This document shows, one piece after another, positions 4,496 through 54,543 of a DNA stretch of 64,000 bases; position 1 is the first letter of the stretch; each line of letters opens with the position of its first letter. This stretch comes from Patescibacteria group bacterium (GTDB lineage: Bacteria; Patescibacteriota; Minisyncoccia; UBA6257; UBA9933), in contig JBBTPY010000001.1 in NCBI GenBank assembly GCA_038065955.1, positions 92,061 to 156,060 on the forward strand, given 5' to 3'. A program made the position numbers and the translations under genes. The notes beneath the pieces are model-generated. The model saw nothing but the letters and a program-made list of their open reading frames with translations. It did no database searches and had not been told where the DNA came from.

Positions 4496-4506
4496 CAAAA
4501 AAATTA

Positions 4507-7537: not shown

Positions 7538-7549
7538 TGAATAAAAAAA

Positions 7550-8300: not shown

Positions 8301-8310
8301 AAATTATAAA

Positions 8311-8775: not shown

Positions 8776-8787
8776 CGCTAAATAAAA

Positions 8788-9133: not shown

Positions 9134-9150
<17 letters not shown>
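8788..9150 (-). CDS. rplM: 50S ribosomal protein L13
   Basis: 120 aa uL13-like: [24 protein letters not shown]. Confidence 0.9.
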
Positions 9151-11275
<2,125 letters not shown>

Positions 11276-11277
11276 TT

Positions 11278-11742: not shown

Positions 11743-11744
11743 AT

Positions 11745-12155: not shown

Positions 12156-12184
12156 AAAAAAAACCTTATCGGTTTATGTCAAAG

Positions 12185-12212
12185 AATATCAAAATTATCC
12201 GCTATTTGTCAA
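12185..12212 (-). promoter_or_regulatory. Putative promoter of the rpsL-rpsG-fusA operon
   Basis: Minus strand TTGACA - 16 nt - GATATT upstream of rpsL. Confidence 0.35.
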
Positions 12213-12241
12213 TGACTTCGCCAAAAAATTATTAAAAAAAT

Positions 12242-14563: not shown

Positions 14564-14603
14564 ATTTTCTTTACCAACTATATTAGAGTATACGATAATT
14601 TTA

Positions 14604-15224: not shown

Positions 15225-15247
15225 AAATTTAAATTTTATAAAAACTC

Positions 15248-15282
15248 TTGACACTAAACGCTAAATATTAAATACTAAATAC
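15248..15282 (+). promoter_or_regulatory. Putative promoter for rpmB
   Basis: TTGACA - 17 nt - AATACT immediately upstream of the rpmB start. Confidence 0.4.
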
Positions 15283-15288
15283 TAATTT

Positions 15289-15495
15289 ATGCGAAAATGC
15301 GAATCATGCGGCAAAGGGTCAATTCTTCGCGGCGGACGAAAGAAGCTCCGCGGTAAGTATAACCCAACGCCAAAAAAAAGAAAATATCCGAATCTTCAAA
15401 AAAGCCGCCTTCAAGACGGCGCGCGGGCTTTAATTTGCGTGAAATGCATCAGAAACATTTCAAGAACGCAGAGCATAAAAACCAGCGGCGCGTAG
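15289..15495 (+). CDS. rpmB: 50S ribosomal protein L28
   Basis: 68 aa; CxxC...; YNPTPKKRKYPNLQKSRL resembles the bL28 core (RRFNPNLQ). Confidence 0.7.
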   Translation: MRKCESCGKGSILRGGRKKLRGKYNPTPKKRKYPNLQKSRLQDGARALICVKCIRNISRTQSIKTSGA

Positions 15496-15547
15496 CTGCT
15501 GATTTTTATTTGGTTGGACTAACCGGTATTCGCCCAGCGCTTTTTTG

Positions 15548-15618
15548 TCGGGCCAGGGCGAATCGAACGCCCACTATACCCACCCCAAGGGTACGGACTA
15601 CCACTATCCGATGGCCCG
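15548..15618 (-). tRNA. tRNA-Pro (GGG)
   Basis: Revcomp CGGGCCATCGGATAGTGGTAGTCCGTACCCTTGGGGTGGGTATAGTGGGCGTTCGATTCGCCCTGGCCCGA; anticodon loop TTGGGGT. Confidence 0.7.
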
Positions 15619-15826
15619 CTCGCTAAAAAAGTCCGCTTAAGCGAACCTTTTTAGCGAGCCCCAGCTGTTGGATTAACCCCGGCTAATACCAAGTGGGAAA
15701 ACTCAATCACAACCCTAAAGCTGTGATACTTTTGTTCTTCCTTTTAAAAATATTTGATCCGGTAATCACAGCTAAGACTCAACTATATTATAACGCCATT
15801 AAAAAATAAATACAAGGCAAGATAAA

Positions 15827-17998: not shown

Positions 17999-18005
17999 TT
18001 TTATG

Positions 18006-18077
18006 CGTCCCCACAAGGAATCGAACCTTGATCTTGAGTTCCGCAAACTCACACTCTATCCATTGAGCTATGGGGAC
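18006..18077 (-). tRNA. tRNA-Arg (GCG inferred)
   Basis: Revcomp GTCCCCATAGCTCAATGGATAGAGTGTGAGTTTGCGGAACTCAAGATCAAGGTTCGATTCCTTGTGGGGACG; anticodon stem TGAGT/ACTCA, loop TTGCGGA. Confidence 0.65.
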
Positions 18078-18082
18078 ATTTT

Positions 18083-18601
18083 CTAAAATCTTATCAATTT
18101 TAACAAAACATCGCTCATTGAAATTTTAATCTCCTCTCGCGGCAAAAATTTCAAAAGCGATTCGCTGATTTTTAATTCATCTTCGGCGAAAATATTAATC
18201 TTTAAATACGGCGCAAATTTTGATTTAAGCCTTAAAACCAATTCTTTATATTCCTCGTTAACCGGATGAATGTCAAAACAGTCAATTTCTTTAAATGAAT
18301 AAAACTTTTCGTCCGCTTTCTTGCCGGCTTCCCCGTCGGGAAATTTAATTAATATGCCGTCACCGTCTATCTTAAATTCCCAAACAGCCGGAAAACGATT
18401 AGCGAAAGAAAATACCACCGCTTCGGCAATTACCACAAAAATCGCAAATAAAAAATTCTTCTGCCATAAAGCCAGTATCAATAAAATTGCGGCAATAATC
18501 AAGCTCAGCCAATACCAAGAAACATCCTTGACGGTATATTCAAATTCCGGCGCCCGCCAGACGAACGGCTCAACTTGTTTTTTAATATTTTTATTCGCCA
18601 T
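18083..18601 (-). CDS. Hypothetical membrane protein (172 aa)
   Basis: Two N-terminal TM helices; no recognisable motif; the start codon abuts the tRNA-Ser 3' end. Confidence 0.5.
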   Translation of the reverse strand: MANKNIKKQVEPFVWRAPEFEYTVKDVSWYWLSLIIAAILLILALWQKNFLFAIFVVIAEAVVFSFANRFPAVWEFKIDGDGILIKFPDGEAGKKADEKFYSFKEIDCFDIHPVNEEYKELVLRLKSKFAPYLKINIFAEDELKISESLLKFLPREEIKISMSDVLLKLIRF

Positions 18602-18602
18602 G

Positions 18603-18684
18603 CGGAGGGTAGAGGAGTCGAACCTCTAAGGGCTTGCGCCCGCCGCTTTTCAAGAGCGGTGCCATGCCATTAGGCGAACCCTCC
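18603..18684 (-). tRNA. tRNA-Ser (TGA), type II
   Basis: Revcomp GGAGGGTTCGCCTAATGGCATGGCACCGCTCTTGAAAAGCGGCGGGCGCAAGCCCTTAGAGGTTCGACTCCTCTACCCTCCG; long variable arm, anticodon loop CTTGAAA. Confidence 0.75.
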
Positions 18685-18721
18685 ATACTAATATTAATGT
18701 ATATTATATAATAATTTTTCG

Positions 18722-18766
18722 AAAATTGGCAAAAAAAATATGGGGAAGCAGATATCTGCTTCCCCA
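18722..18766 (-). terminator. Rho-independent terminator of the 75-aa Cys-rich peptide gene
   Basis: Perfect palindrome ggggaagcagatatctgcttcccc followed on the minus strand by atatttttttt. Confidence 0.7.
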
Positions 18767-18889
18767 TAGAGAGGAGGAATGAAGGAATGGATAACCTTCA
18801 TTACTTTGGGGGGCTCTCGAGCCCACAAGCGTAAATCTCGAGAAAGCTTTACTTACGCTTATGGGGGTTAGCCACCCCACAAAGATTCA

Positions 18890-19117
18890 TTATCGTAAAA
18901 GTTCATTTTTACAATTACGATTTGCCTTAAGGCATGAAAACTTAGGTTTTGATTTGCAATCCTTTCTTTCAAGACCGCACTCCCCAATTTTGTTTATGTT
19001 TTTGATTTTTTGCTGAATCATAGTTGCTGTCGCGGCTATAAAAACGAGCTCTTTTCCATCACAAAATCCACTACGAATTCCCTCATTTATAAAATTAGCC
19101 ATATTGTTAAAATCCAT
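18890..19117 (-). CDS. Small Cys-rich protein (75 aa), hypothetical
   Basis: MDFNNMANFINEGIRSGFCDGKELVFIAATATMIQQKIKNINKIGECGLERKDCKSKPKFSCLKANRNCKNELLR; SD AAAGGAG 7 nt upstream; own terminator; 5 Cys in the C-terminal 30 aa. Confidence 0.5.
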   Translation of the reverse strand: MDFNNMANFINEGIRSGFCDGKELVFIAATATMIQQKIKNINKIGECGLERKDCKSKPKFSCLKANRNCKNELLR

Positions 19118-19302
19118 AACAGTCTCCTTTCAGATACAAAAACAAAAAAGGTTATTAAAGAAAAAACTATTCCCTCCTCAATTTAGTTAAGCAAATCCAT
19201 TCATCCATTCATATTTATCACCGCCTCCTTCCTTTTAAAATTATTTAAATGACCTATTAATATATTAGGCAGATTTTCGAAAAAGTCAACCCCTATCAAT
19301 TT

Positions 19303-19374
19303 TGGACCCGAGCGGGATCGAACCGCTGATCTCCTCATTGCAAATGAGGCATTCTACCACTGAACTACGGGCCC
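19303..19374 (-). tRNA. tRNA-Ala (TGC)
   Basis: Revcomp GGGCCCGTAGTTCAGTGGTAGAATGCCTCATTTGCAATGAGGAGATCAGCGGTTCGATCCCGCTCGGGTCCA; G3.U70 Ala identity pair. Confidence 0.8.
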
Positions 19375-19463
19375 GATTATTTTGGACTCGGCGAGAACCC
19401 AGCACAACAGCAAAACTGTGTGTACGGGGCGCGTTGAACTCGTGTCTCCATCCATCACCATTC

Positions 19464-19537
19464 TGGTGGACCCACCGGGAATTGAACCCGAACCTCGGCA
19501 ATGCGAATGCCGCGTAATGCCGTTTTACTATGGGCCC
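19464..19537 (-). tRNA. tRNA-Ala (CGC)
   Basis: Revcomp GGGCCCATAGTAAAACGGCATTACGCGGCATTCGCATTGCCGAGGTTCGGGTTCAATTCCCGGTGGGTCCACCA; G3.U70, CCA encoded. Confidence 0.65.
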
Positions 19538-19551
19538 ACCGCAAAGGTGAA

Positions 19552-19590
19552 GGACGAATGCGACGTATTGCCAACTATACTACAAGCCCG
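19552..19590 (-). pseudogene. Truncated tRNA 5' half (acceptor plus D-arm only) between tRNA-Pro(CGG) and tRNA-Ala(CGC)
   Basis: Revcomp GGGCTTGTAGTATAGTTGGCAATACGTCGCATTCGTCC has a canonical acceptor/D-arm but no anticodon, T-arm or 3' acceptor partner before the next tRNA begins. Confidence 0.45.
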
Positions 19591-19602
19591 TTTATCGCTT
19601 TG

Positions 19603-19674
19603 TCGGGCCGCCGAGAATCGAACTCGGTCTCTACGCACCCGAAGCGCATGTACTACCGGTATACTACGGCCCGA
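19603..19674 (-). tRNA. tRNA-Pro (CGG)
   Basis: Revcomp CGGGCCGTAGTATACCGGTAGTACATGCGCTTCGGGTGCGTAGAGACCGAGTTCGATTCTCGGCGGCCCGA; flanked by inverted repeat aaagcgat that extends the acceptor helix by about 10 bp. Confidence 0.7.
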
Positions 19675-19713
19675 CAAAGCGATGAACCCCGAAGCGCTCA
19701 CACTACGCCCGAT

Positions 19714-21294
19714 TTACTTCACATAATACTTCTTTTTTATCTCTGCTTCAATCCCCCCTTCAAATTCTTCCTTCTTTTCACGGCTAATTCTTGCCGATTT
19801 TTCAAGTTCAGCGTCCGATAATTTCCCTAAACTTTTAATTCTAAATTCCAAATTCTCTTTCGTGTTTTTTTCGGGATTTTCAATAACTTCATCCAGTAAA
19901 ACGGACAAAATCCAACCGATACGCGGACCCGGCGCAATGCCTAAAATTTTCATCACGTCTTCGCCGTTGACTTTCAGCATTTTCGGCGAAATCGGGTCTT
20001 GTTTCACTTTTTCAATCATAAAAAGCAGATGTCTTAATTTATAAGGCACGGCTTTCGGCACGCCGGAACCGATTCTATCCGCTTCGCGAATCTTGATTAA
20101 ATCGTTAACGTTTTCCGGGCCCACGCGGGCCAAAAATCTACGAACTCCGGCTTCCGTCACTTCGCCGACATTGTAATAAAAAAGGTGGCAACGGACCAAA
20201 TGAACGACTTTCTCCGCAATTTCTTTCGAAAAACGCAATCTATCCATCGCGGCCGCCGTTATTTTCGCGCCGACAACCTCGTGATTGTAAAAAGTGCAAT
20301 CAGGTCCTTCGCCGGCTTTAGTCCGAGGCTTACCGATATCGTGGAACAAAGCGGCTAAGCGAATCTCCAAAGAATAATTTTTCTTGACGGCGTAATCCAA
20401 AGCGCGCAAATTATGCTCCCAAATCGTGTAAATATGGTGCTTATTCTGGCCATTGCCTATTCCCTCGCGCAAATCCGGCATAATGTATTTCAACAAACCC
20501 GCCTCTTCAAGCAATTCAACTCCATTTTTCGCCGACGGCGTCATTATTATTTTTATAAACTCATCGCAAATCCTTTCTTTGGCTATCATTTCAAGCAACC
20601 CGGCTTCTTTTTTAATCGCTTCCATCGTTTTTTCTTCAATCGCAAAATTAAGCTGAACCGCGAATCTCACCCCCCGCATCAGCCGCAAAGCGTCCTCGTT
20701 AAAACGCTTTTCGGAATTCCCGACGGTGCGAATTATTCTATTTTTTAAATCTTCCTGTCCATTATAAGTATCAATAATTTTGAATTTTGAATTGTAATTT
20801 TGATTTTTGATTTTTGATTTTTGAATTTCTATTGCCATGGCATTTATAGTAAAATCCCGCCTGCTTAAATCTTCTTCAATAGTCTTGGCGAATTTAATCT
20901 CATCCGGATGCCTTTTATCCGTATATTTGCCCTCTAATCTGAATGTTGTTATTTCAACGACATTCAGCGCAGAACTACGCTGACTTGACGCTGAATTACG
21001 CTGAATTTCTTCTGCGTCTTTCTGCTTACCATCTGTGAGAGTCTGCGGTTTTAGTTTCACTAAAACAGTACCGAATTTATTTTCATAAACGGTGTCGGCA
21101 AAAATTTTCTGGATTTCTTCCGGTTTTGCGTTTGTGGCGACATCCCAATCTTTTGGTTCGCGATTCATTAAAATATCCCTTACGCACCCCCCGACAAGAT
21201 ATGCCTGAAAATTCGCTTTTTGTAATTTTTCAGATATATTTATAACTTCTTCGGGGATACTCGTCCTGAATTTTATTGAAGGATTGAAACTCAT
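19714..21294 (-). CDS. cca: CCA-adding tRNA nucleotidyltransferase / poly(A) polymerase family with HD domain
   Basis: LVGGCVRDILMNREPKDWDVATNAKPEEIQ nucleotidyltransferase head, HD domain HDIGK; contains in-frame repeat-derived inserts (20778-20828, 20964-21008). Confidence 0.85.
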   Translation of the reverse strand: MSFNPSIKFRTSIPEEVINISEKLQKANFQAYLVGGCVRDILMNREPKDWDVATNAKPEEIQKIFADTVYENKFGTVLVKLKPQTLTDGKQKDAEEIQRNSASSQRSSALNVVEITTFRLEGKYTDKRHPDEIKFAKTIEEDLSRRDFTINAMAIEIQKSKIKNQNYNSKFKIIDTYNGQEDLKNRIIRTVGNSEKRFNEDALRLMRGVRFAVQLNFAIEEKTMEAIKKEAGLLEMIAKERICDEFIKIIMTPSAKNGVELLEEAGLLKYIMPDLREGIGNGQNKHHIYTIWEHNLRALDYAVKKNYSLEIRLAALFHDIGKPRTKAGEGPDCTFYNHEVVGAKITAAAMDRLRFSKEIAEKVVHLVRCHLFYYNVGEVTEAGVRRFLARVGPENVNDLIKIREADRIGSGVPKAVPYKLRHLLFMIEKVKQDPISPKMLKVNGEDVMKILGIAPGPRIGWILSVLLDEVIENPEKNTKENLEFRIKSLGKLSDAELEKSARISREKKEEFEGGIEAEIKKKYYVK

Positions 21295-21368
21295 TAAAAT
21301 CTATTATAAACTAAAAACTAAACAACTGAAAATTTAATTGACTAAATTTACGCTCACCCCTTTCTTTT

Positions 21369-21440
21369 GCCCTTGTAGTGAAATGGATATCACGACAGGC
21401 TTCGAACCTGTTATTGGGGGTTCGAATCCCTCCAAGGGCA
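21369..21440 (+). tRNA. tRNA-Arg (TCG inferred)
   Basis: GCCCTTGTAGTGAAATGGATATCACGACAGGCTTCGAACCTGTTATTGGGGGTTCGAATCCCTCCAAGGGCA; anticodon loop CTTCGAA. Confidence 0.65.
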
Positions 21441-21449
21441 CATAAAAAG

Positions 21450-21522
21450 GCATCCCTAGCTCAATTGGCAGAGCAAATCCCTCTTAAGGATGAGGTTCTG
21501 GGTTCGACTCCCAGGGGATGCA
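21450..21522 (+). tRNA. tRNA-Lys (CTT)
   Basis: GCATCCCTAGCTCAATTGGCAGAGCAAATCCCTCTTAAGGATGAGGTTCTGGGTTCGACTCCCAGGGGATGCA. Confidence 0.75.
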
Positions 21523-21533
21523 CATAAAATTTT

Positions 21534-21608
21534 GCGGGTATCGTATAGTGGCCATTATGCGACCTTGCCAAGGTCGAGATAGGGGTTCGATTCCCCTTAC
21601 CCGCTCCA
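21534..21608 (+). tRNA. tRNA-Gly (GCC), CCA encoded
   Basis: GCGGGTATCGTATAGTGGCCATTATGCGACCTTGCCAAGGTCGAGATAGGGGTTCGATTCCCCTTACCCGCTCCA. Confidence 0.8.
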
Positions 21609-33475: not shown

Positions 33476-36400
33476 TTAAATCTTCTTTATGCCGAGCCAA
33501 ATTTCTGAATCGTCAATTTTCGTTTCCGATTCAACGGTAAATTTATCTGTTTTCGCGAATTCAATTTTTTTGGCGCCCACTTCGGTTTTAAGATTCTCCA
33601 TATTCTTGCTTATCAATTTTTGAAAATAATCGTCGGCGTGAATATTTAAAATAATCACGTCTTTTGGAATAAAATCGGCTTCTTTGCGCAAATCTTGAAT
33701 GACGCGCGTCAATTCGCGCAATTGTCCTTCAGCTTTTAATTCCGGCGTAATATTTATGTCTAATTCAACATCGCTCGCGATATTTTTGTCAAAAATAATT
33801 TCTTTGACATTCACCTCATCTTTAATCAATTCCAATAATTCTTTATTATTCTTGATACCTAATACTTGATACTTGATACTTATTTTTGCGAGCGGCTGCC
33901 GGACTTTTATGCCCGATTTCTGCCGCGCGTCTAAGCCAAGCGAACAAATTTTCCGCGTTTCCGCCATCATCTCAATCAATTTTTTATCAATTTTCGGTTT
34001 ACCCGCCGAAGTTTTAACGAAGGCGGGCCATTTTTCTAAATGAACTGATTCTATATTTCTAACACCTGACACCTGACACTTGACACTTTGATACAACGTT
34101 TCGCTGATAAACGGCGCAAAAGGCGCGCTCGCTTTTGAAAATTCAGATAAAACAAATCGAGTTGTCGCAATGGCATTTTGCTTATCTCTGCCTTCTGTTT
34201 TAAATCTTTCACGCGAGCGCCTGATATACCAAGTGGATAAATCGTCAATAAATTCTCCAAGCGGCCGGCTGGCTTTATCAAGTTCGTAATTATCCATCGC
34301 CTCGGACACTTCTTTAATTAGTTGTTTAAGCCGCGTCAAAATCCAAATATCCAAAATATTTTTACCTGACACCTGACGCTTGACACTTAACACCTTCTTA
34401 TCCGCGTATAAATCGTAAAATTGATAAACATTCCAAAGACGCATAATTATTTTTTTATAAACCTCATCAACGCCTTTTTCGGAAAAATTCAAATCTTCTC
34501 CGCGCACCGCCGGCGATGACAAAAGATAAAGCCGCAATGCGTCGGCGCCGTATTTTCCAACAATCTCCATCGGGTCCGGATAATTTTTTAGACGCTTGCT
34601 CATCTTTTGGCCGTCTTCGGCAAGAATAATGCCGTTAACAATCACATTTTTATAAGCCGGCTTATTAAACAGCCCCGTTGAAAGAACTAAAAGCGTATAA
34701 AACCAGCCGCGCGTCTGGTCAATGCCCTCGGCGATAAATTCAGCTGGAAATCCGAATTTTTGATTATTCTCAAACGGATAATGCGCCTGTCCGTAAGGCA
34801 TTGAACCGGATTCAAACCAACAGTCAAAAACTTCCGGGACTCGACGCATTTCTCCGCCGCAGGAACAAGTAAATTTCATTTCATCAATATACGGCCGATG
34901 CAAATCAAGCTCATAATTTTGATTATGAGGAAGCGGAATAAAATCCAATTTTTTTACTTCTCCGGTTTTTATAAAATCATCTGATTTATTTATTCGTGTG
35001 TGCCCATTCGTTAAGGCTTTCGCATACTTAATTTCCACGGCTTTTTTCGCATCGGCGCCGACAGTGGCGGCAAAAAACAACCAAATCGGATACTCGTGAG
35101 AAACGATTAAAATATTTTTATTTTGATATTTATTTTCAATTTCATACAAAAATTCCGCGACCCGATTTTTTAATTCCGTAAGATTTTCGCCCTCCGGCGG
35201 CGTTTTATAAAATTTCTCTTCAAGCGGCGCGAAATTCCGGTATTCTTCAATTTTTTTCCCGTCAATAATTCCAGTATTGACCTCTCTTAACCGTTTGTCA
35301 AAAATTATTTTCCCTTCCCAACCGATTGCCTTTACGGCAAGCTCGGCGGTTTCTTTGGCGCGGCGAAAATCAGAGACGAAAATAAAATCAATTTTTTCTT
35401 TTTTTATTTTTTTTGCCACCGCTAAAACCTGTTTTTTCCCTTTTTCCGTAAGAGAAAATTTATCTTTATTTTTAACGCTTGTATTAACGACGCCTAACGT
35501 GTTATTTTCTCCTTCGCCGTGGCGCATCATAAAATATCTGTTGCCGGACTTTTCCGTTTTTCTTTTTATATCATCTAAAGAGCCGATTATTTCCAAATTA
35601 TCACATCTCTCGCATTTCCAAGCCGGCAAAGGCGCTCCCCAAAATCTTGAACGCGAAATCGCCCAATCGCGCGCCCCTTCCAGCCATTTGCCGAAACGGC
35701 CGTCCCTGATGTGTTTTGGTATCCAGTTTATTTTTTTATTATTGGCAATCAGTTTATTTTTTATCTCTTCAACTTTAACGAACCAAGAACTTGCCGCGTA
35801 ATTTAAAAGCGGCGTGTCGCAACGCCAACAATGCGGATAAGAATGGATAATTTTTTCTTTTTTGAAAAGTTTGTTTTCCTTGGCGAGCCATTTAATTATT
35901 TCAATGTCAGTCGCTTGCGAATTTTCTTTCGGTTTTACGGACAATCCGACGAAATCTTTTACTTCCGACTTAAATTTTCCGTCTATCCCAACGTGCTGAA
36001 TAAACGGCAAATTTTCTTTTTTCGCCAAATTCATATCGTCTTCGCCAAAAGCCGGCGCAATATGAACTATACCGGTGCCCTCATTAGTTGTTACAAAATC
36101 ATCGGCGTAAATTTTCCAGCCGTTTTCACAATTTTTTAAATTTTTATCTTCTGCGTAATAATTAAAAAGCGGTTTGTATTTTTTACCGATTAAATCTTTA
36201 CCTTTAATAGGCAATCCAATAAGAGTAGTTTCTCCTTCAAATGGAAATGTTTTTACTAAAAGATTTTCGGCAACAATAAAAAATTCGTTTTTTATTTTTA
36301 CTTTTCCATATTTAATATCCGGATTTACCGCAAGCGCCACGTTCCCCGGTAGCGTCCAAGGAGTTGTCGTCCAAGCTAAAACAAAAGTGTTTGGTTCATC

Positions 36401-37045
36401 TTCTAATTCAAATTTAGCGACAACCGAAATATCGGTTATATCTTTATATCCCTGCGTCACTTCAAAATTCGCCAAAGTTGTTTCGCATCGCGGGCAAAGA
36501 TGCATCGGCTTATATCCCTCATAAATAAGCCCTTTATTAAAAAGCGACTTAAAAACCCACCAGACGGATTCCGTATAAGTCCAATCCATCGTTTTATAAT
36601 CGTTTTCCATGTCAATCCAGCGGCCGACTCGGGGAATTATTTTTTTCCATTCGTCCCTGTATTCCAAAACCGCGCCTTCGGCGGCTTCGTTGAATTTTTC
36701 AATGCCGATTCGCTCTATGTCTTTTTTCGTTTTCAATCCGAGTTTTTTCTCTATTTCATTTTCAATCGGCAAGCCGTGGCAATCCCAGCCCCAACGGCGA
36801 GGAACTTTTTTACCTTTCATCGCCTGATATCTCGGCACCGCGTCTTTTATGATTGACGCTAAAATATGGCCGTAATGCGGCAAGCCGGTGGCAAAAGGCG
36901 GCCCGTCATAAAAAACAAAACCGCCTTTCGGTTTTTTACCGGCGGGCTTTTCAATGGATTTTTCGAAAATCTTATTTTTTTGCCAAAATTTTAAAATTTC
37001 TTCTTCTAATTTATTGATATTAAATTTTTCCCTATTTTCGGACAT
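33476..37045 (-). CDS. ileS: Isoleucyl-tRNA synthetase with an embedded histidine-phosphatase (PGM-like) domain
   Basis: HIGH-class motifs (PPFATGLPHYGH, KMSKRLKNYPDP) and CWRCDTP/CERCD zinc knuckles; about 230 extra residues between CERCDNLEIIGS and DLHRPYIDE include RYFMMRHGEGENN (RHGE catalytic signature) and LIVSHEYPI; also carries octamer-repeat inserts. Confidence 0.9.
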   Translation of the reverse strand: MSENREKFNINKLEEEILKFWQKNKIFEKSIEKPAGKKPKGGFVFYDGPPFATGLPHYGHILASIIKDAVPRYQAMKGKKVPRRWGWDCHGLPIENEIEKKLGLKTKKDIERIGIEKFNEAAEGAVLEYRDEWKKIIPRVGRWIDMENDYKTMDWTYTESVWWVFKSLFNKGLIYEGYKPMHLCPRCETTLANFEVTQGYKDITDISVVAKFELEDEPNTFVLAWTTTPWTLPGNVALAVNPDIKYGKVKIKNEFFIVAENLLVKTFPFEGETTLIGLPIKGKDLIGKKYKPLFNYYAEDKNLKNCENGWKIYADDFVTTNEGTGIVHIAPAFGEDDMNLAKKENLPFIQHVGIDGKFKSEVKDFVGLSVKPKENSQATDIEIIKWLAKENKLFKKEKIIHSYPHCWRCDTPLLNYAASSWFVKVEEIKNKLIANNKKINWIPKHIRDGRFGKWLEGARDWAISRSRFWGAPLPAWKCERCDNLEIIGSLDDIKRKTEKSGNRYFMMRHGEGENNTLGVVNTSVKNKDKFSLTEKGKKQVLAVAKKIKKEKIDFIFVSDFRRAKETAELAVKAIGWEGKIIFDKRLREVNTGIIDGKKIEEYRNFAPLEEKFYKTPPEGENLTELKNRVAEFLYEIENKYQNKNILIVSHEYPIWLFFAATVGADAKKAVEIKYAKALTNGHTRINKSDDFIKTGEVKKLDFIPLPHNQNYELDLHRPYIDEMKFTCSCGGEMRRVPEVFDCWFESGSMPYGQAHYPFENNQKFGFPAEFIAEGIDQTRGWFYTLLVLSTGLFNKPAYKNVIVNGIILAEDGQKMSKRLKNYPDPMEIVGKYGADALRLYLLSSPAVRGEDLNFSEKGVDEVYKKIIMRLWNVYQFYDLYADKKVLSVKRQVSGKNILDIWILTRLKQLIKEVSEAMDNYELDKASRPLGEFIDDLSTWYIRRSRERFKTEGRDKQNAIATTRFVLSEFSKASAPFAPFISETLYQSVKCQVSGVRNIESVHLEKWPAFVKTSAGKPKIDKKLIEMMAETRKICSLGLDARQKSGIKVRQPLAKISIKYQVLGIKNNKELLELIKDEVNVKEIIFDKNIASDVELDINITPELKAEGQLRELTRVIQDLRKEADFIPKDVIILNIHADDYFQKLISKNMENLKTEVGAKKIEFAKTDKFTVESETKIDDSEIWLGIKKI

Positions 37046-40786: not shown

Positions 40787-41059
40787 ATGATAGAAGAATC
40801 AGTAAACCCCCACACCTTACAAGGTGCGGGGATAAATCTGCTTTTTTTAATGCGCCATGGCAATATGTTCGCTTATAAAGAAATGAGAGAATGGCTTATT
40901 AAGAAAAATCTTCTTTCTGAAAACAAGAAAGACGATTTGAAATTTAAAATCATTATTTCTCAACTGAAAAAAGAAGGATTGATAGACAAACGCAATGTTG
41001 ACGGAAGATATTACATAACGCCGAAAGGAAAAATTCTTTTGGAAAAATTAAGAGGGTAA
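40787..41059 (+). CDS. PadR-like winged-helix transcriptional regulator (90 aa)
   Basis: LFLMRHGNMFAYKEMREWL...LKKEGLIDKRNVDGRYYITPKGKILL matches the PadR wHTH pattern; followed by terminator hairpin gagggtaaaattcataaaacttgccctc plus T-run. Confidence 0.6.
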   Translation: MIEESVNPHTLQGAGINLLFLMRHGNMFAYKEMREWLIKKNLLSENKKDDLKFKIIISQLKKEGLIDKRNVDGRYYITPKGKILLEKLRG

Positions 41060-41144
41060 AATTCATAAAACTTGCCCTCTTTTTTATTTCAGAAACTTTA
41101 AACTATTGACAAAACATTATTATTTTTATTTAATACAATCAGAA

Positions 41145-41545
41145 CAAAAAAGTTTATTAAAGAAACAATCCTTTGTCCTGGGAATGCTAGTGGTAGGCCT
41201 GCAAAGAAATTTTTACCAAGGACAGCATATTATCGCTTGCTAGGTAATATGTCCTCCTTAAAAAAAGGTAAAAGTAGGTGGGGTTCGACTCCTCCCATTC
41301 TTGTCTGATTGGCAAGAACACTGTGTAGGATAGGCGGGAGACTATGAAGTTTAAGCGTCCAGCAAGGGACCACGCGCCAGCGGTAAACTGAGTCGCCGTT
41401 GAAATACCGCCCTTTGTTCAGGAGAAAAACCCGGCAGGCAATTAGTCTAAAGTTAAGACTATGCTGGCCGGAACTAATCAGACTCGGGACAAAATTTTCT
41501 CATGGCCGAAAAGTAATTTATTTACTGAGTAGGCCTTTTTTTATT
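41145..41545 (+). ncRNA. rnpB: Candidate structured ncRNA (~400 nt), possibly RNase P RNA (type A-like)
   Basis: No ORF; promoter-like TTGACA-17-TATTTAAT at about 41107-41140 and terminator aggccttttttt at the end. GCGG-UAAAC...GUUG-AAAUA-CCGC resembles the P15 internal loop (GGUAAAC/AAAUA) that binds the tRNA CCA; GUCCUGGG (5') can pair with CUCGGGAC (3') like a P4 helix; the length matches. No clear AGGAAAGUCC CR-I. Confidence 0.35.
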
Positions 41546-41597
41546 TCTAATTTTAAATTTTAACCTTTAAAATAAAAATAATTTGAATAAAAACTCA

Positions 41598-41636
41598 ATT
41601 TCGGTTATTTCAACGATAGTTGAAATAACCGAAATT
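41598..41636. repeat. 40-bp palindromic repeat element, copy 1 (variant centre)
   Basis: aatttcggttatttcaacgatagttgaaataaccgaaatt; near-identical copies at 42408-42446 and 54400-54439. Confidence 0.85.
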
Positions 41637-41771
41637 GTAGAATACAAAAACTATCTGAATAACTATCTAAATACAAAACTATTTTTCATCGACAATATAT
41701 ATAAATTTATATAAAAATGTGAATATTCCACTTAAAAATAAATGCTTCCCGCTTTAAAAATTTCACTAATT

Positions 41772-42365
41772 TTATTTAATTCCGAATTTATTTTTCAAAT
41801 CTAAATCAATGTCTGTCTTTTTAGCAAGTATTATTCTGACATACGGCTTTAAATTAAAAATTTCCACGATAAAATCTATTTCATTTTGGCATTCGTAAGG
41901 ATAAATAAAAACGCTTTTTTGGAGCGGGTAAAACCCTAATTGTTTCAATTTAACCGCCAGCGCGTTTCTTCCCTGTTTAAGATGTTCAGGGATATCGAAA
42001 ATAACCATTCTCCATAATCCATCCCATTGCGACGGTTTTTTTATTTCTATTTTATCTAAATTGTATGTAAGCGCCCGCTTTTTTCCCTCGCTATTTAAAA
42101 CCAAAGTAATTGTATCATTATCATTTTCTTTATAATCAATTAATTTTGACCTGTATAGATTTTTAATCGCTTCGTGGAGGGTGCGTCTATTAATATCTTT
42201 CCATTCTTTTTTCATCCCATCAACAATTCTAAAATACGCATCCGGTCTTTGCGTTAAAGATAAAACCAAGCCGCCCTCCAATAGAAGAAGAATTTTTTGA
42301 GCCACTGGTCCTAATTGTAATCTTTTCCCCTTGTTTCTTTTTATAAAATTTTCATTTCTTTTCAT
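41772..42365 (-). CDS. PaaX-like regulator (winged-helix N-terminus plus Cas2-fold PaaX_C-like C-terminus)
   Basis: WDGLWRMVIFDIPEHLKQGRNALAVKLKQLGFYPLQKSVFIYP matches the PaaX C-terminal (Cas2-like) pattern; flanked on both sides by the 40-bp palindrome. Confidence 0.55.
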   Translation of the reverse strand: MKRNENFIKRNKGKRLQLGPVAQKILLLLEGGLVLSLTQRPDAYFRIVDGMKKEWKDINRRTLHEAIKNLYRSKLIDYKENDNDTITLVLNSEGKKRALTYNLDKIEIKKPSQWDGLWRMVIFDIPEHLKQGRNALAVKLKQLGFYPLQKSVFIYPYECQNEIDFIVEIFNLKPYVRIILAKKTDIDLDLKNKFGIK

Positions 42366-42407
42366 AAAAATCTTTTCATAAAAAATTATAAGAATTATAT
42401 CACATCA

Positions 42408-42446
42408 ATTTCGGTTATTTCAACGATCGTTGAAATAACCGAAATT
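42408..42446. repeat. 40-bp palindromic repeat element, copy 2
   Basis: aatttcggttatttcaacgatcgttgaaataaccgaaatt perfect palindrome, with shared flanks attatatcayatc... and ...gRctgaaacattaaa. Confidence 0.85.
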
Positions 42447-42447
42447 G

Positions 42448-42590
42448 ACTGAAACATTAAATATTCTCCTGTAAACCCCGTTAGAAGCTCACGCGAGACA
42501 TTAAACCCCGTGTTCGCTAAAACAACAGAGAGCATTCATCCCCGCGGCAAGCCACGGGACATTCTGCTTCTAACGGGGTAAAATTAATAA
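42448..42590 (+). promoter_or_regulatory. Highly structured ~120-nt leader upstream of smpB (candidate cis-regulatory RNA/sRNA)
   Basis: 13-bp outer stem ccccgttagaagc...gcttctaacgggg enclosing an inner cccgtg/cacggg stem; ends at the smpB ATG. Confidence 0.35.
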
Positions 42591-43022
42591 ATGATTATCG
42601 CCGCCAATAAACGAGCGTATTTTGACTACCAAATTCTTGAAACTTTTGAGGCCGGGATTGAATTAAAAGGATTTGAAGTTAAATCAATAAAAAACGGCAG
42701 GATAAACCTCGCCGGTTCTTACGCCGTCATCCGCGATAATCAAGCGTGGCTTCTTAACGCCGATATTCCGGCTTACCAACCGAAGAACGCGCCGAAAAAT
42801 TACGATTCCAAAAGAACGCGGCGGCTTTTACTGAAAAAATTGGAAATAAAAAACTTAATCGGCCGCATTCATGAAAAAGGCTTGACTTTGACTCCTTTAA
42901 AAGTTTATACTAAAAATCACAGAATAAAGATGGAAATCGGGTTAGGGAAAAGCAGAAAAAAAGCGGACAAAAGAGAATTAATAAAGAAAAGGGATGTTAA
43001 ACGAGAAATCAGACGGGAATGA
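42591..43022 (+). CDS. smpB: SsrA-binding protein
   Basis: 143 aa; N-terminal NKRAYFDY...E.GIEL.G.EVKS and basic C-terminal tail. Confidence 0.9.
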   Translation: MIIAANKRAYFDYQILETFEAGIELKGFEVKSIKNGRINLAGSYAVIRDNQAWLLNADIPAYQPKNAPKNYDSKRTRRLLLKKLEIKNLIGRIHEKGLTLTPLKVYTKNHRIKMEIGLGKSRKKADKRELIKKRDVKREIRRE

Positions 43023-43029
43023 CAGGAAT

Positions 43030-43390
43030 CGATGACAGCACTTTTATAAAATCGCAAGCCGAGGACGATTCGTCACCTCGTCAATCATCGAATCAAAATC
43101 ATATCTGCCAAAAACAGATTAGCCAATTATTTGGCTCCCGCTTTCGCTTTCGCCTAAGCGGCATCCGCTTTTAATCGCTTGAATTAAAAGACCGGGTGTA
43201 ATATTTTAAGCTATGGTTGATGTTCCGCCGAAAACATCTGCTGAAAATTATCGGCAAAGAGTTTTGAAGATTTCGTTAAGTTTTAACTTCTAAATTCTAT
43301 ATCCTAACTTGACTAAGCTCGTAGAAATTTTATAAATTTATTGTCAGACGGGGCTTCAATGCCCCCATTTCCACACAAATTTAAAAATTA
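43030..43390 (+). ncRNA. ssrA: Candidate tmRNA (ssrA) region immediately downstream of smpB; speculative
   Basis: No protein ORF. A short frame GCC AAU UAU UUG GCU CCC GCU UUC GCU UUC GCC UAA (43122-43157) = ANYLAPAFAFA*, tag-like and preceded by an A-rich tract with UAG as in known tmRNAs. Stable hairpins after the stop; 3' GGGGCUUCAAUGCCCC T-arm-like hairpin. The 5'/3' acceptor pairing could not be confirmed. Confidence 0.3.
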
Positions 43391-43897
43391 ATTATTATTA
43401 ATTATCGCATCAACAATCAAATAAAGGCGATTGAGCTTAGAGTCGTTGACGAAACCGGACAGAATTTGGGAATTATGCCGCTTGAGGCGGCATTAAAATT
43501 GGCGACCGAAAAAGGAATAGACTTGATTGAAATCGCGCCGACGGCCAAGCCGCCGGTCGCCAAAATAATCAGCTACGATAAATTTCGCTACCAGAAAGAA
43601 AAAGAGCTGAAAAAACAAAAGGCCGCCCAAAAAACCAGCGAACTGAAACAAATAAGAATCAGCGCCAAGGCCGCCAAAAACGATTTAGAAATTAAAGCCA
43701 AAAAAGCCGTGGAATTTATTAATGAAGGCCATAAAGTCGGGATTATTTTAATATTAAAAGGCCGAGAGAAATATATGAAAGACTGGGCGAGACAAAAATT
43801 AAACGAATTTTTATCAATAATCAACTCTGAATATAAAATCACGATGGAGCCGAAGTTCGGAGGAAGAGGATTAATGACGCAAATAATTAAAAAATGA
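43391..43897 (+). CDS. infC: Translation initiation factor IF-3, likely with a non-AUG (AUU) start
   Basis: ORF-track start (TTG at 43466) lies inside the gene. In-frame upstream codons give ...NYRINNQIKAIELRVVDETGQNLGI, matching the IF3 N-domain (RINGEIRA.EVRL.DE.GEQLG). AUU/AUA codons at 43391/43421 are candidate autoregulated starts, as in other bacteria. Confidence 0.75.
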   Translation: MIINYRINNQIKAIELRVVDETGQNLGIMPLEAALKLATEKGIDLIEIAPTAKPPVAKIISYDKFRYQKEKELKKQKAAQKTSELKQIRISAKAAKNDLEIKAKKAVEFINEGHKVGIILILKGREKYMKDWARQKLNEFLSIINSEYKITMEPKFGGRGLMTQIIKK

Positions 43898-44872: not shown

Positions 44873-46621
44873 TTATTTTAACATAGAAAGCATTTTCTCG
44901 GCAGACCAACAATTAATAATGTCATTTTTTGCCGCCCAACCGCGGCGAGCCTGAAAAATGCCATATTCCATAAAATTCATTTGTTCTTTTTGATGGGCAT
45001 CCGTATTAATAATCATTTTAACGCCAATTTCTTTTGCCTTTCTAATGTTTTTATCATTTAAATCAAGCCTGTAAGGATTGGCGTTGATTTCCAAAATCGT
45101 GCCGGTTTCTTTGGCGACTTTTAAAATTTTAGCGAAATCAATCTCGTATTCGTCTCTTTGTTTCAAAATCCGGCCGGTTGGGTGGGAAATTATGTCAACA
45201 TTCGGATTTTCCATCGCCTTAATAATCCTTTCGGTCATTTTTTCTTTCGTCATTTTCATCTGCGAATGAACGCCGGCGATGACATAATCAAGTTTTGCCA
45301 GCGCTTCGTCGGAAATATCAATTGAGCCGTCGGATAAAATATTAGCTTCACAGCCGTGTAATACACGACATTTGACACCTGACATTTGACATTTGACATT
45401 AATTTTATCAATTTCTTTTCGTTGCTCCGCTAATTGTTTTTCGTCCAAGCCATGTTCAATCGCCAAAAACTTCGTATGGTCGGAAATGCCGACATATTCA
45501 TAACCCATCGCCATTGCCGTTTCAATAATTTTTTCAATCATCTCCGGTCCTTTGCCGCTCCCCCAATGCGAATGGCAGTGAAGGTCGCCTTTTATATCTT
45601 TCGGCCTAATAAGTTTCGGAAGACCGTTGGACTTGCCCTGAGCTTGCCGAAGGGCCGCCTCAATCTCGCCCTGATTTTCCCGGAGTTCCGGCGAAATCCA
45701 TCTAAGCCCCAGTTTTTCGTAAATTTCTTCTTCGTTTTCTCCGGCAATCATTTTCGCTCCGCGAAACAGGCCGTATTCCGAAAGTTTCAAACCTTTTTCA
45801 ATCGCGATTTTCCGCAAAACTATATTGTGCTCTTTGGAGCCGGTGAAATACTGAAGCGCGGAGCCGTAAGATTTTTCCGGAACCACGCGAATATCCATAT
45901 CATACCCATCTTCAAACCGAACCGAAGTTTTAGTTTTTCCTTTGCCCCAAATTTTGACGATGCCGGGAAGCGAAACGAAAAAAATCATCACTTTTTCCGG
46001 ATTATCGGAAACCACCAAAAAATCAACATCGCCTATCGTTTCTTTCCGCCGGCGAATTGAACCGCAAGCAACCGCTTTTTTCACTTCTTTGATTCCATTT
46101 AATTTTTTCTCTATTTCACCGACAAGCGGCAAAATTTCGCCGAGTAAAAACCTGCCTTTGTCTCTTTTTAAAAACTCTATTCCTTCCAGAATGTTTTTCT
46201 CCGTTTTTTCTCCGAATCCGAAGAGCGACGCGATTTTATGGGATTTGGCGGCTTTCTCCAAATCTTTCAGATTTTTAATTCCCAATTTTTCGTAAAGAAT
46301 TTTGGCTTTTTTCACGCCCATTCCTTCGACTTTAACGATATTGTCCAAATCAATCGGAATTTTCTTTTTAAATTTTTCATATTCTTTGATTTTTCCGGTT
46401 TTCAGATATTCTTCAATTTTCTTGGCGATTCCTTCGCCGACGCCCGGAATTTCTTTAAGCGCGTTTACGCCGCCTCTTTGATAAATATCTTTCACGCTTT
46501 CTTTTAGAGATTCAACCGCTATCGCCGCTTTTTGATAAGCGTACGGCTTAAAAGCCACGCCTTCCATCTCCAGATAATCGGCGAGTTCGTAGAATATTTT
46601 TGCGAGGTCTCGATTTATCAC
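44873..46621 (-). CDS. Family X DNA polymerase with C-terminal PHP domain (PolX)
   Basis: HhH motifs (GVGEGIAKKIEEYL), Pol-beta-like nucleotidyltransferase core (GSIRRRKETIGDVDFLV), PHP domain HCHSHWGSG...; repeat-derived inserts at 45366-45400 and 45631-45658. Confidence 0.85.
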   Translation of the reverse strand: MINRDLAKIFYELADYLEMEGVAFKPYAYQKAAIAVESLKESVKDIYQRGGVNALKEIPGVGEGIAKKIEEYLKTGKIKEYEKFKKKIPIDLDNIVKVEGMGVKKAKILYEKLGIKNLKDLEKAAKSHKIASLFGFGEKTEKNILEGIEFLKRDKGRFLLGEILPLVGEIEKKLNGIKEVKKAVACGSIRRRKETIGDVDFLVVSDNPEKVMIFFVSLPGIVKIWGKGKTKTSVRFEDGYDMDIRVVPEKSYGSALQYFTGSKEHNIVLRKIAIEKGLKLSEYGLFRGAKMIAGENEEEIYEKLGLRWISPELRENQGEIEAALRQAQGKSNGLPKLIRPKDIKGDLHCHSHWGSGKGPEMIEKIIETAMAMGYEYVGISDHTKFLAIEHGLDEKQLAEQRKEIDKINVKCQMSGVKCRVLHGCEANILSDGSIDISDEALAKLDYVIAGVHSQMKMTKEKMTERIIKAMENPNVDIISHPTGRILKQRDEYEIDFAKILKVAKETGTILEINANPYRLDLNDKNIRKAKEIGVKMIINTDAHQKEQMNFMEYGIFQARRGWAAKNDIINCWSAEKMLSMLK

Positions 46622-49161
46622 GATACAAATTTTATTTCTCCGTTTTCCAAAATCGCTTTAACGCCGCTACCTTTGATAATTTCCTCTCTTAAAATTTTTT
46701 CCGCCAAAACAGAACGAATTTTTTCGGAAATAACGCCGCGCAAAGACCTTGCGCCAAAAACCGGGTCGTAGCCAAGTTCAGCGATACGTTTAATAATTGT
46801 TTCATCAAAATCCAAACTAATGCCATGAGTTTCTTCTAAAGTTTTTGCCAAAGACTTTAATTGAAGTCCGGTAATGGCTTCAATATCATTTGTTGAAAGA
46901 TTTTTAAAAAACACGATTTGGGAAAAACGGTTCAAAAGCTCCGGCTTGAAATATTCGGTCAATTTTTTCTTTAATTCTTCACCTATTTGTTCCATTAATT
47001 TTTTGGCCTCAATTGATTCTTTAATGAAATTAGAATGGGCATTGGAAGTGGCAATAATAATGACATTCGTAAAATCAACAATTCTTCCTAAACTATCGGT
47101 AAGCCGTCCATCATCAAAAACCTGCAAAAATAAATTTAAAATATCTGAATGGGCTTTTTCAAACTCGTCCAGTAAAATCAGACTGTAGGGTTTTTGAATA
47201 ACGGCTTCGGTAAGAGCGCCGGCGATTTTGCCATCCGCCGAACCGATAAACCGACTGATGCTTTCTTTGTTTTGATATTCGCTCATATCAAAACGAATCA
47301 TCATTTTTTCTTCTCCGAATTGAATTTTCGTCAAAATTTTAGATAATTCGGTTTTACCCACACCAGTCGGACCCACGAATAAAAACGAAGCAATCGGCCC
47401 GCCTTGGCGCGACAAACCGCTGCGGTATTCCCTGAGCGCCCGCGAAACCGCGGAAACGGCCGGTTCCTGGTCAACTAAAAACTCATGAATAATTTTTTCG
47501 AGATTCAATAATTTCTCCGCTTCGTCTTTGCCAGCTTTGTGAATCGGCACGTTGATTTTCCGCTCGGCCACCGCGCTCACATCGTCCGCCTGAAGCAATT
47601 TATCGCCGCGCTGGGAAACATAACTTAAAGATTCTTTTAATAAATCTTCGGCGCTGGAAGGAAGTAATTTATTCCGAAAATATTTATGAGCCAAAATAAC
47701 GGCTTGTTTAATGGCGCCGAAACTGATTGTAATTTTATGCTGCCTTTCCAGAATTACCGCCTCATAAATTAAAAGACGTTCCGCGTCATCCTCGGAAATT
47801 TCTTCAACCCGAATTACTTCAAAAGCGTCGATAAAATCGCTTTTTGGCTCAATCAATTGTTTATATTCCCGCGGGTAAGTGGCGCCAATAAGCGGGAAAG
47901 CGTCGTTATTAATAATAGGTAAAAAAATATCTGAAGGAGAAACCTGACCTTCACCGAAAGTCTTCGCCAGATTATGAATGTCCGGAATATATAAAATCAC
48001 GTTGCCGGCCGAAACAATTTCATCGGCTATCTTGTTAAACCGCGCCGAAATTTCGCCGGCCGCGGCGCCGGAAACTAAACGGCCGATTTCCAAAGACACC
48101 AGCCGCTTATCAAAAATCGCTTCCGGCACTTCATCTTTAATAATGCCAAAAGCTAAAGCCGCCACAACAGTCTCCTTTCCGCTGCCCGGCTCGCCTACAA
48201 TAAGCGCATTCGGTTTTATCGTTCGAGATAAAATATCAACCAGTCTGTCATATTCTTGCTTGTGGCCGATTAAAAATCCAATACTGCCTTCCCGCGCCAA
48301 ATCGGTAAAATCAACGCCATATTTATCTAATGTCGGCGTCGGTCTGGCGGTCCAAGCCCTGTTCATCGGTCGATGGCGAAGTTTAAACGGATGGCGCGCA
48401 AAAGCGCCGAGCAATTTCGGCAAACGGTTGAAACGATTGAAACGGCTGAAAATCACCGCTTTTTCCAAATCCGCCGGATTGATTTCAAATAAATTAAAAA
48501 GACGATTGATATTTTTATTATTTGCCCCAGACAGCGCCGCGAATAAATCGCGAGGGTCAATAAAACTATTTTTGGCGTTAATCGCCTGAATAAAAGCCAA
48601 TTTTACTAAATTCCCCGCTTTTAAAAATAAATCTTCCGCCGAATTTTTTATTTTTTTATTTTCTTCAAGCTCAATAAATTCTTCTATTTTCGCCGCAAAT
48701 TCATTAATATCCGCATCCATCCGCGAAAGCCCTTTTTTTATCTCCGGTAATCTGATTAAAAATCTGATTAAATACAGATAAAAATCGCCGCCGACAATCA
48801 GCGCCTTATCGGATGATTTTTCTAATATTGAAAAGCTGGCCGGTGAAAGATAATAAGCCGCGTTAAACATCGGCGATTGAACGACGCCTAAATTTTCTTT
48901 TCGCCGGCTAAGACGAGGAAGATACCTCAAAAAACTCACCGTTGATCTTTCGGCCTGCCCAAAATGAATCAGGCGGTCTCCCAGAAATAATAAAATCAAA
49001 ACCCCAAGCCAAAATAAACGCTTCACGTCGGATAAAATAAAAGTTGCGGCCGCCGCCGTTAAGACCGCGTAAATTAAATAAATAATCAAACGGACAAAAA
49101 ACCGGCCGGCAAAATTCATCTTCAGCCGCGGCTCGAAAAAATATAAATTATTAAAATCCAT
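46618..49161 (-). CDS. Clp/Hsp100-family double AAA+ ATPase (ClpC/ClpB-like) with N-terminal TM segments
   Basis: Clp_N repeat, Walker A GEPGSGKE (AAA-1) and GPTGVGKTE (AAA-2), sensor/ClpB_D2-small region; two hydrophobic helices at the N-terminus; no obvious long M-domain. Confidence 0.8.
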   Translation of the reverse strand: MDFNNLYFFEPRLKMNFAGRFFVRLIIYLIYAVLTAAAATFILSDVKRLFWLGVLILLFLGDRLIHFGQAERSTVSFLRYLPRLSRRKENLGVVQSPMFNAAYYLSPASFSILEKSSDKALIVGGDFYLYLIRFLIRLPEIKKGLSRMDADINEFAAKIEEFIELEENKKIKNSAEDLFLKAGNLVKLAFIQAINAKNSFIDPRDLFAALSGANNKNINRLFNLFEINPADLEKAVIFSRFNRFNRLPKLLGAFARHPFKLRHRPMNRAWTARPTPTLDKYGVDFTDLAREGSIGFLIGHKQEYDRLVDILSRTIKPNALIVGEPGSGKETVVAALAFGIIKDEVPEAIFDKRLVSLEIGRLVSGAAAGEISARFNKIADEIVSAGNVILYIPDIHNLAKTFGEGQVSPSDIFLPIINNDAFPLIGATYPREYKQLIEPKSDFIDAFEVIRVEEISEDDAERLLIYEAVILERQHKITISFGAIKQAVILAHKYFRNKLLPSSAEDLLKESLSYVSQRGDKLLQADDVSAVAERKINVPIHKAGKDEAEKLLNLEKIIHEFLVDQEPAVSAVSRALREYRSGLSRQGGPIASFLFVGPTGVGKTELSKILTKIQFGEEKMMIRFDMSEYQNKESISRFIGSADGKIAGALTEAVIQKPYSLILLDEFEKAHSDILNLFLQVFDDGRLTDSLGRIVDFTNVIIIATSNAHSNFIKESIEAKKLMEQIGEELKKKLTEYFKPELLNRFSQIVFFKNLSTNDIEAITGLQLKSLAKTLEETHGISLDFDETIIKRIAELGYDPVFGARSLRGVISEKIRSVLAEKILREEIIKGSGVKAILENGEIKFVS

Positions 49162-54324: not shown

Positions 54325-54399
54325 ATATTTTTATTATGAATAATAATATTAATAAATAAAAAATTGAAAGTCAAGATTATATCATAATTATATCATATC

Positions 54400-54439
54400 A
54401 ATTTCGGTTATTTCAACGATCGTTGAAATAACCGAAATT
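54400..54439. repeat. 40-bp palindromic repeat element, copy 3
   Basis: Identical to copy 2, including flanks tatatcatatc... and ...ggctgaaacattaaa; intergenic between rpsP and smc. Confidence 0.85.
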
Positions 54440-54543
54440 GGCTGAAACATTAAAAACATTAAATGTTCTTCTGTAAAATTATCTGTAAAATTATCTGTAA
54501 AATTAATAAATGATTATATCTTTATGTATTAAAAGTGTTTCTT

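Follow-up and report, generated by a model that had tools for sequence, protein, structure and literature searches.

A predicted one-piece transfer-messenger RNA gene at the end of smpB in a Patescibacteria group bacterium

Does the spacer that follows smpB in a Patescibacteria group bacterium (assembly GCA_038065955.1, contig JBBTPY010000001.1) carry the gene for transfer-messenger RNA (tmRNA), or is the tag-like reading frame found in it an accident of a short non-coding region? The question comes from an earlier note on a stretch of 64,000 nucleotides of this contig (the whole stretch is called the window here, and all positions refer to it), which had tentatively proposed a tmRNA adjoining smpB. 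A short open frame by itself is within chance, and the significance of the locus derives from three other sources: the score of a covariance model, the covariation among relatives and the coding signature of the tag. On this sequence evidence, positions 43015..43373 of the plus strand, from the mature 5' end to the discriminator A, almost certainly encode a functional standard one-piece tmRNA (SsrA), the partner of the SmpB protein encoded just upstream. The features of a one-piece tmRNA are all present, namely the acceptor stem, the T-arm, a first pseudoknot (PK1), the tag frame, three further pseudoknots (PK2-PK4) and the SmpB partner. A tmRNA gene next to smpB is ordinary housekeeping biology that is already known, and placing one here, in an uncultured bacterium, is annotation rather than discovery.

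The earlier note had suggested a search with the Rfam tmRNA models, and this search was positive. When the whole window was scanned, the one-piece family RF00023 matched 43015..43376 (+) with 111.2 bits, well over its gathering score of 47 (E 1.3e-42), and the match runs end to end, over model positions 1-374 of 374. It is the sole non-tRNA match of the whole-window scan at the gathering threshold, and a permissive Rfam scan of 42900-43500 on both strands reported no family besides tmRNA. Mapping the RF00023 structure onto the sequence leaves 75 of the 94 consensus pairs canonical. Additionally, ARAGORN run with the option that lowers its thresholds to 95% (-ps) calls a standard tmRNA at 43015..43374 with the tag AKNRLANYLAPAFAFA followed by a stop codon. 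The proposed tmRNA beside smpB is thus supported by the full-length Rfam match, by ARAGORN -ps and by the occurrence of an identical tag in a relative (locus L005, contig JBBUCW010000009.1).

Relatives were collected by scanning species-representative genomes with the SmpB protein, which yielded 80 loci with SmpB identities of 56-86%, all of them from metagenome-assembled genomes (MAGs) of Patescibacteria (Wolfebacteria, Paceibacterota, Nealsonbacteria, Jorgensenbacteria and others). Of the 20 closest loci, 19 have a full-length Rfam tmRNA directly behind smpB, and in the twentieth the contig ends too early. ARAGORN reports a tmRNA at 50 of the 80 loci by default and at 69 with -ps; these 69 relatives and the window form the set of 70 clade tmRNAs used below. 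Covariation was measured in a 25-sequence alignment on a structure derived from the window, with controls in which the partners were slid by 1-3 columns and with 500 shuffles. Pairing occupies 87.6% of the cells in this alignment compared to 37-54% in the slid controls, compensatory changes are found in 60 of the 80 pairs, and none of the 500 shuffles attains the observed values.

The tRNA-like domain is complete at the level of the acceptor stem, whose 5' strand GGGAAUG (43015..43021) pairs 7/7 with the 3' strand CAUUUCC, the latter being followed by the discriminator A at 43373 (43366..43373 together). The pairing includes G3:U70, with G3 in the 5' strand and U70 at 43368. The earlier note had described acceptor pairing as not evident, which proved wrong; the stem was overlooked because its 5' strand begins 15 nt to the left of the interval then considered, within the end of smpB. 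In the 25 aligned relatives the acceptor helix is 100% paired, with a compensatory exchange between G4:C and A4:U and an invariant G3:U, and the pair is G:U in 69 of the 70 clade tmRNAs. The G3:U70 wobble is the alanine identity pair, and both tRNA-Ala genes of the window carry it too.

The hairpin GGGGC-UUCAAU-GCCCC, which had been offered as a possible degenerate T-arm, turns out to be the real one; it lies at 43350..43365 (+), with a stem of 5 bp and a tRNA-like loop (UUC-purine-A) of 6 nt, and differs from the RF00023 model by one deletion. The T-loop has 7 nt in all 13 tRNA genes of the window. A 16-nt T-arm with a 6-nt loop is common to 35 of the 70 clade tmRNAs, the window included, and its closing pair covaries within the clade, occurring as G:C, U:A, C:G or U:G.

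The absence of an encoded CCA end, also remarked on in the earlier note, was confirmed: the discriminator A43373 is followed by CAC (ACAC). Only 10 of the 70 clade tmRNAs encode CCA, as do 4 of the 13 tRNA genes of the window, which span 2531-21608. A gene for a CCA-adding tRNA nucleotidyltransferase is found at 19714..21294 on the minus strand, recognized by Pfam through the PolyA_pol head, RNA-binding, HD and tRNA_NucTran2_2 domains; its top NCBIfam matches are CCA tRNA nucleotidyltransferases, yet they fall under the equivalog cut-offs. This gene is located among the tRNA genes of the window. Since the other 9 of the 13 tRNA genes lack CCA as well and the window holds a gene for the enzyme that adds it, an unencoded CCA is normal here, and CCA would be added to the tmRNA post-transcriptionally.

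The long connector helix H2 links the tRNA-like domain to the rest of the molecule through a 5' strand at 43033..43059 (+) and a 3' strand at 43317..43346 (+), both placed by Rfam mapping, by an inverted repeat (I11) and by covariation. Helices 2-4 are 85-98% paired in the 25-sequence alignment and compensatory changes are present in them. PK1 (43060..43094, +) consists of CGAGG 43060-64 paired with CCUCG 43076-80 and of GAUUCG 43067-72 paired with CGAAUC 43089-94; it stands upstream of the resume codon, and its second stem is 100% paired with a compensatory change in 5/5 pairs. The hairpins of the pseudoknots come from the Rfam mapping, and their second stems were placed by hand because a nested model cannot show them. 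Strong hairpins after the stop codon had been noticed from the letters alone, and they correspond to helix 5 and then PK2. Helix 5 (CCGCUU/AAGCGG, 43138-43143/43156-43161, +), read from the sequence and partly from the Rfam mapping, encloses the last tag codons together with the stop, and its CCGC/GCGG changes to CUGC/GCAG and CGGC/GCCG in aligned relatives. PK2 (43162..43211, +) is made of a hairpin at 43162-43198 and a second stem at 43177-81/43207-11, which is 89% paired with 5/5 pairs compensatory. PK3 (43215..43255, +) has its hairpin at 43215-43242 and its second stem between GCCGA 43227-31 and UCGGC 43251-55; this second stem is the weakest of the four, being 64% paired where the alignment is noisy, with a compensatory change in 4/5 pairs. 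PK4 (43259..43310, +) has a hairpin at 43259-43297 and a second stem of AAGUU 43278-82 with AACUU 43306-10, 91% paired and compensatory in 4/5 pairs; with it the ring of pseudoknots returns to H2. Taken together, the four second stems are 85.9% paired, whereas sliding the partners lowers this to 26-46%, and compensatory changes are seen in 18 of their 20 pairs.

The tag frame occupies 43107..43157 (+), from the resume codon GCC at 43107-09 to the stop codon UAA at 43155-57, and specifies the peptide AKNRLANYLAPAFAFA. The same resume codon is called by the Rfam alignment and by ARAGORN -ps. The frame running from GCC to UAA that the earlier note had read at 43122-43157 is exactly there and belongs to the true tag frame, but its eleven codons start too late, the tag having 16 residues counted from GCC 43107. 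A UAG had also been placed before that GCC. The text is UUAGCC, so that the UAG at 43120-22 is out of frame and shares its G with the GCC; read in frame, the triplet is UUA (Leu). On these grounds the UAG was rejected as a limit of the tag frame. In L005 the tag identical to that of the window is found by ARAGORN at default settings, which provides an independent confirmation of the resume codon; the two frames differ only by a synonymous CCC/CCT. Tags of 16 residues also occur in L006, L010 and L012, and most other relatives have a tag of the 12-residue ANKNLAPAFAFA type.

Evidence that this frame is a coding one comes from the manner in which it varies. In the set of 70 tmRNAs, the entropy of the final six codons of the tag is 1.0-1.8 bits at the third position compared to 0-1.25 at positions 1-2, the C-terminus follows the motif P-A-[LFY]-A-[FY]-A, the stop is UAA in 70/70 and the resume codon is GCN in 64/70. 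Third-position variation together with a conserved peptide motif and a constant UAA indicates that the tag frame is selected as a coding sequence.

A small hairpin was also observed inside the tag frame, AGCCAA-UUAU-UUGGCU at 43121..43136 (+), with a stem of 6 bp. It coincides with the 4-codon insertion by which a 12-residue tag becomes one of 16 residues. Five tags have this length (the window, L005, L006, L010 and L012); they share one stem sequence and vary in the loop, and five are too few for covariation.

Several observations weigh against a functional one-piece tmRNA at this locus. Of the 94 consensus pairs, 12 do not pair canonically and deletions have removed 7, CCA is absent from the gene, the T-loop has 6 nt where 7 is canonical, and ARAGORN at default settings gives 13 tRNAs in the window and calls a tmRNA neither there nor in the sub-region run by itself. 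The ARAGORN check that the earlier note had suggested was therefore divided in its outcome, negative by default and positive with -ps, and the -ps call itself is marked as low-scoring ('tmRNAp'). A rival explanation is a decaying, non-functional tmRNA pseudogene with a working copy elsewhere in the genome, to which the call obtained only under the default threshold, the 'p' mark, an Rfam score (111 bits) that is low among close relatives (97-157) and the 19 of 94 consensus pairs that are non-canonical or deleted all lend some support. Decay is nevertheless hard to reconcile with what is intact, since the acceptor stem with its 7/7 pairs and G3:U70, the discriminator A, the T-arm, PK1-PK4 and the open tag frame with its UAA have all been kept, and the tag has departed from that of L005 by a synonymous change alone. 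The gene also keeps its position in the conserved order smpB-ssrA-infC, behind a promoter that appears to be under constraint. Additionally, the oddities of the sequence are each common to many relatives, so that they look like traits of the clade rather than signs of decay: 19 of the 70 clade tmRNAs fall under the ARAGORN default threshold and half have the 6-nt T-loop. A pseudogene is accordingly very improbable.

The default ARAGORN miss reflects a marginal score and not an absence, given that -ps recovers the gene. Among the clade tmRNAs such misses are enriched in the 6-nt T-loop class (14/35 compared to 5/34). The short T-loop as the only cause of the miss was rejected, as ARAGORN does find the tmRNA of L014, whose T-arm is the same.

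Another explanation would treat the region as a structured 3' untranslated region of smpB, a leader of infC-rpmI-rplT or a small protein gene, with the tag-like frame being incidental. The setting lends itself to this explanation in that smpB and the infC operon border the region on its two sides and no terminator is predicted, and in that a mechanical open reading frame of 51 codons exists at 43019..43174. The spacer had been described as free of open reading frames, which is right as regards real genes and not as regards this mechanical one. The 51-codon frame was rejected as a gene because it differs from the frame of the conserved tag and crosses paired tmRNA helices. The covariation follows the helices and pseudoknots of tmRNA, and the permissive Rfam scan that reported tmRNA only included no leader family among its results, so that this explanation has a negligible probability. 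A permuted, two-piece tmRNA, which the earlier note had raised for checking, is just as remote, nothing speaking for it except that the acceptor pairing had not been seen, and it is refuted by the standard layout: the acceptor strands stand in standard order at both ends of one 359-nt gene, ARAGORN assigns gene positions 1-26 to the 5' part of the tRNA domain and 325-360 to its 3' part, and the one-piece RF00023 matches end to end with no family of its clan outcompeting it.

With the locus read as a functional one-piece tmRNA, its arrangement with the neighbouring genes deserves description. The smpB coding sequence (42591..43022, +) encodes 143 aa and ends with the TGA stop at 43020-43022; its product matches Pfam PF01668 with 170 bits and two NCBIfam SmpB equivalogs with 174 and 162 bits, both above their cut-offs. 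The UGA stop of smpB forms nt 6-8 of the tmRNA, inside the 5' acceptor strand, so that the two genes overlap by 8 nt. In the set of 70, the smpB stop lies inside the tmRNA in 28 loci, 18 of them exactly at -8 and 4 at -10 (L009, L019, L020, L025, L029, L033 and L036 are among the overlapping loci), and a gap of 0-20 nt separates the two genes in a further 22; the smpB-to-tmRNA distance among relatives ranges from -35 to +415 nt. A literature search found no description of such an overlap of the smpB stop with tmRNA.

Because the smpB stop is inside the tmRNA, every smpB messenger RNA (mRNA) must reach into tmRNA sequence. If RNase P cleaved such a transcript at tmRNA +1, the smpB stop would be stripped off and a non-stop smpB mRNA left, which would itself be a substrate for tagging by tmRNA-SmpB. 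From this it is conceivable, but on balance rather unlikely, that smpB and ssrA are fused in this clade as a single expression unit whose two products are each made at the other's expense. If true, the arrangement would provide a built-in negative feedback on SmpB, with the bulk of tmRNA being supplied separately from a promoter inside smpB.

A candidate for such a promoter was found by a consensus scan (10/12) at 42882..42911 (+), within smpB, with a -35 element TTGACT at 42882-87, an 18-nt spacer and a -10 element TATACT at 42906-11, the end of which lies 103 nt from the 5' end of the tmRNA. A promoter-like motif of at least 10/12 is present in 54 of the 70 loci, and its distance to the tmRNA downstream is mostly 102-129 nt. 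The smpB codons that hold the hexamers show synonymous constraint: Leu98 is TTG in 75/81 compared to a background of 25%, Tyr106 is TAT in 79/80, and Thr107 is ACT in 64/65 compared to a background of 42%, while nearby Leu, Val and Pro codons are free to vary. The recurrence of the motif and the synonymous constraint on its codons point to a conserved ssrA promoter embedded in the smpB frame, and 42882-42911 is probably that promoter in the window.

Downstream, infC (encoding IF3) extends over 43430..43897 (+), its start being probably the AUU at 43430, and is followed on the same strand by rpmI and rplT, as assigned from open reading frames, translation and synteny. It begins 56 nt past the tmRNA in the window and usually 40-136 nt past it in relatives, 65 of 69 of which have infC downstream on the same strand in the order smpB-ssrA-infC. 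No terminator-like site was found on the plus strand after the tmRNA in the window, which suggests that a longer transcript spanning several genes may be the source from which the tmRNA is cut out.

A mechanism can be proposed in which the RNA architecture is the one described above and the steps of the pathway are taken from established tmRNA biology. Transcription of the precursor would probably start at the promoter within the smpB frame (-10 at 42906-11), and read-through of smpB transcripts may contribute as well. RNase P would cleave at G43015, the 3' end would be trimmed to A43373, and CCA would be added by the enzyme encoded at 19714..21294. Alanyl-tRNA synthetase (AlaRS) would charge the molecule with alanine via G3:U70, and the complex of Ala-tmRNA, SmpB and EF-Tu would enter a ribosome that has stalled with its A site empty on a stop-less mRNA. 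Translation would resume at GCC 43107 and terminate at UAA 43155, with release of the ribosome; AKNRLANYLAPAFAFA would be appended to the product, its first Ala being supplied by the charged tmRNA. The hydrophobic AFAFA terminus would then mark the product for an ATP-dependent protease.

In most respects the predicted molecule resembles standard tmRNA (10Sa RNA, RF00023, e.g., E. coli ssrA). It shares with it the tRNA-like domain with G3:U70 and the discriminator A, the order of H2 and PK1 before an alanine resume codon, helix 5 and PK2-PK4, an adjacent smpB, and a short tag frame with a hydrophobic, alanine-containing end and a UAA stop. It differs from the E. coli type in a tag that ends in AFAFA and not ALAA and has 16 residues compared to 10-11, as well as in the 6-nt T-loop, the unencoded CCA and the 8-nt overlap with the smpB stop. 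The ssrA of E. coli is a separate gene downstream of smpB; in the window the ssrA promoter likely lies inside smpB. The position and architecture are the same as in related Patescibacteria (Wolfebacteria, Paceibacterota and Nealsonbacteria MAGs), half of which share the 6-nt T-loop. Where tags are concerned, that of L005 is identical and those of L006, L010 and L012 are near-identical, whereas most relatives lack the 4-codon LANx insertion of the window tag and have the 12-residue type.

The tag ends of the clade are AFA in 33/70 and AYA in 15/70, and LAA in none (0/70). An AFA end rather than LAA is a defining trait of the Mycoplasma-type tag (PMC3985003), which has about 27 residues and is degraded mainly by Lon in M. 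pneumoniae (PMC8403727). The AFA/AYA ends of the clade recall this Mycoplasma exception, which is linked to the loss of ClpXP and a switch to Lon. The window tag is like the Mycoplasma tags (...FAFA/...YAFA) in its C-terminal AFA in place of ALAA and unlike them in length, with 16 residues here and 12 in most relatives. The resemblance may serve as a lead only and does not amount to a demonstrated shared mechanism. A literature search on tmRNA in Patescibacteria and on the protease content of the Candidate Phyla Radiation (CPR) returned nothing usable. Within its 64 kb the window encodes one ClpA/B/C-like AAA+ gene (46618..49161), which stays below all equivalog cut-offs; its assignment as ClpB, ClpA or ClpC was rejected because all NCBIfam matches are under those cut-offs.

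Other features of the window were noted along the way. A perfect palindrome of 44 nt (TCAATTTCGGTTATTTCAACGA and TCGTTGAAATAACCGAAATTGA) occurs at 42405-42448, 41595-41637 and 54397-54445, and also in L004 (2172-2216). Two of its copies flank a gene with a PaaX_M/Cas2-like domain at 41772..42365, and the palindrome may serve as an operator or belong to a family of dispersed palindromic repeats. Just upstream of the smpB start lies an element of about 105 nt (42475-42579) closed by a 14-bp stem, with a minimum free energy of -41.6 kcal/mol (z -5.3 on the plus strand and -4.05 on the minus strand), whose 3' arm covers the GGGG immediately before the smpB start codon. This element has no Rfam family and is not conserved by sequence (blastn against the 80 relatives), and a permissive Rfam scan of 41000-42650, which is poor in open reading frames, gave chance-level matches only. 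Further away, an isoleucyl-tRNA synthetase of 1189 aa is encoded at 33476-37045 (-); its core is split in two by a histidine-phosphatase domain (His_Phos_1) that occupies residues 505-674.

For the organism, the result means that the universal ribosome-rescue RNA is found at the expected place in this genome. For the clade, it means that surveys relying on ARAGORN at default settings would under-count trans-translation in the CPR, as about one quarter of the tmRNAs of this clade are missed in that way. The overlap with smpB, the embedded promoter, the short T-loop and the AFA/AYA tags offer leads on how ribosome rescue may be regulated in very compact genomes, and the AFA/AYA tag ends in particular are a lead on which protease reads the tag.

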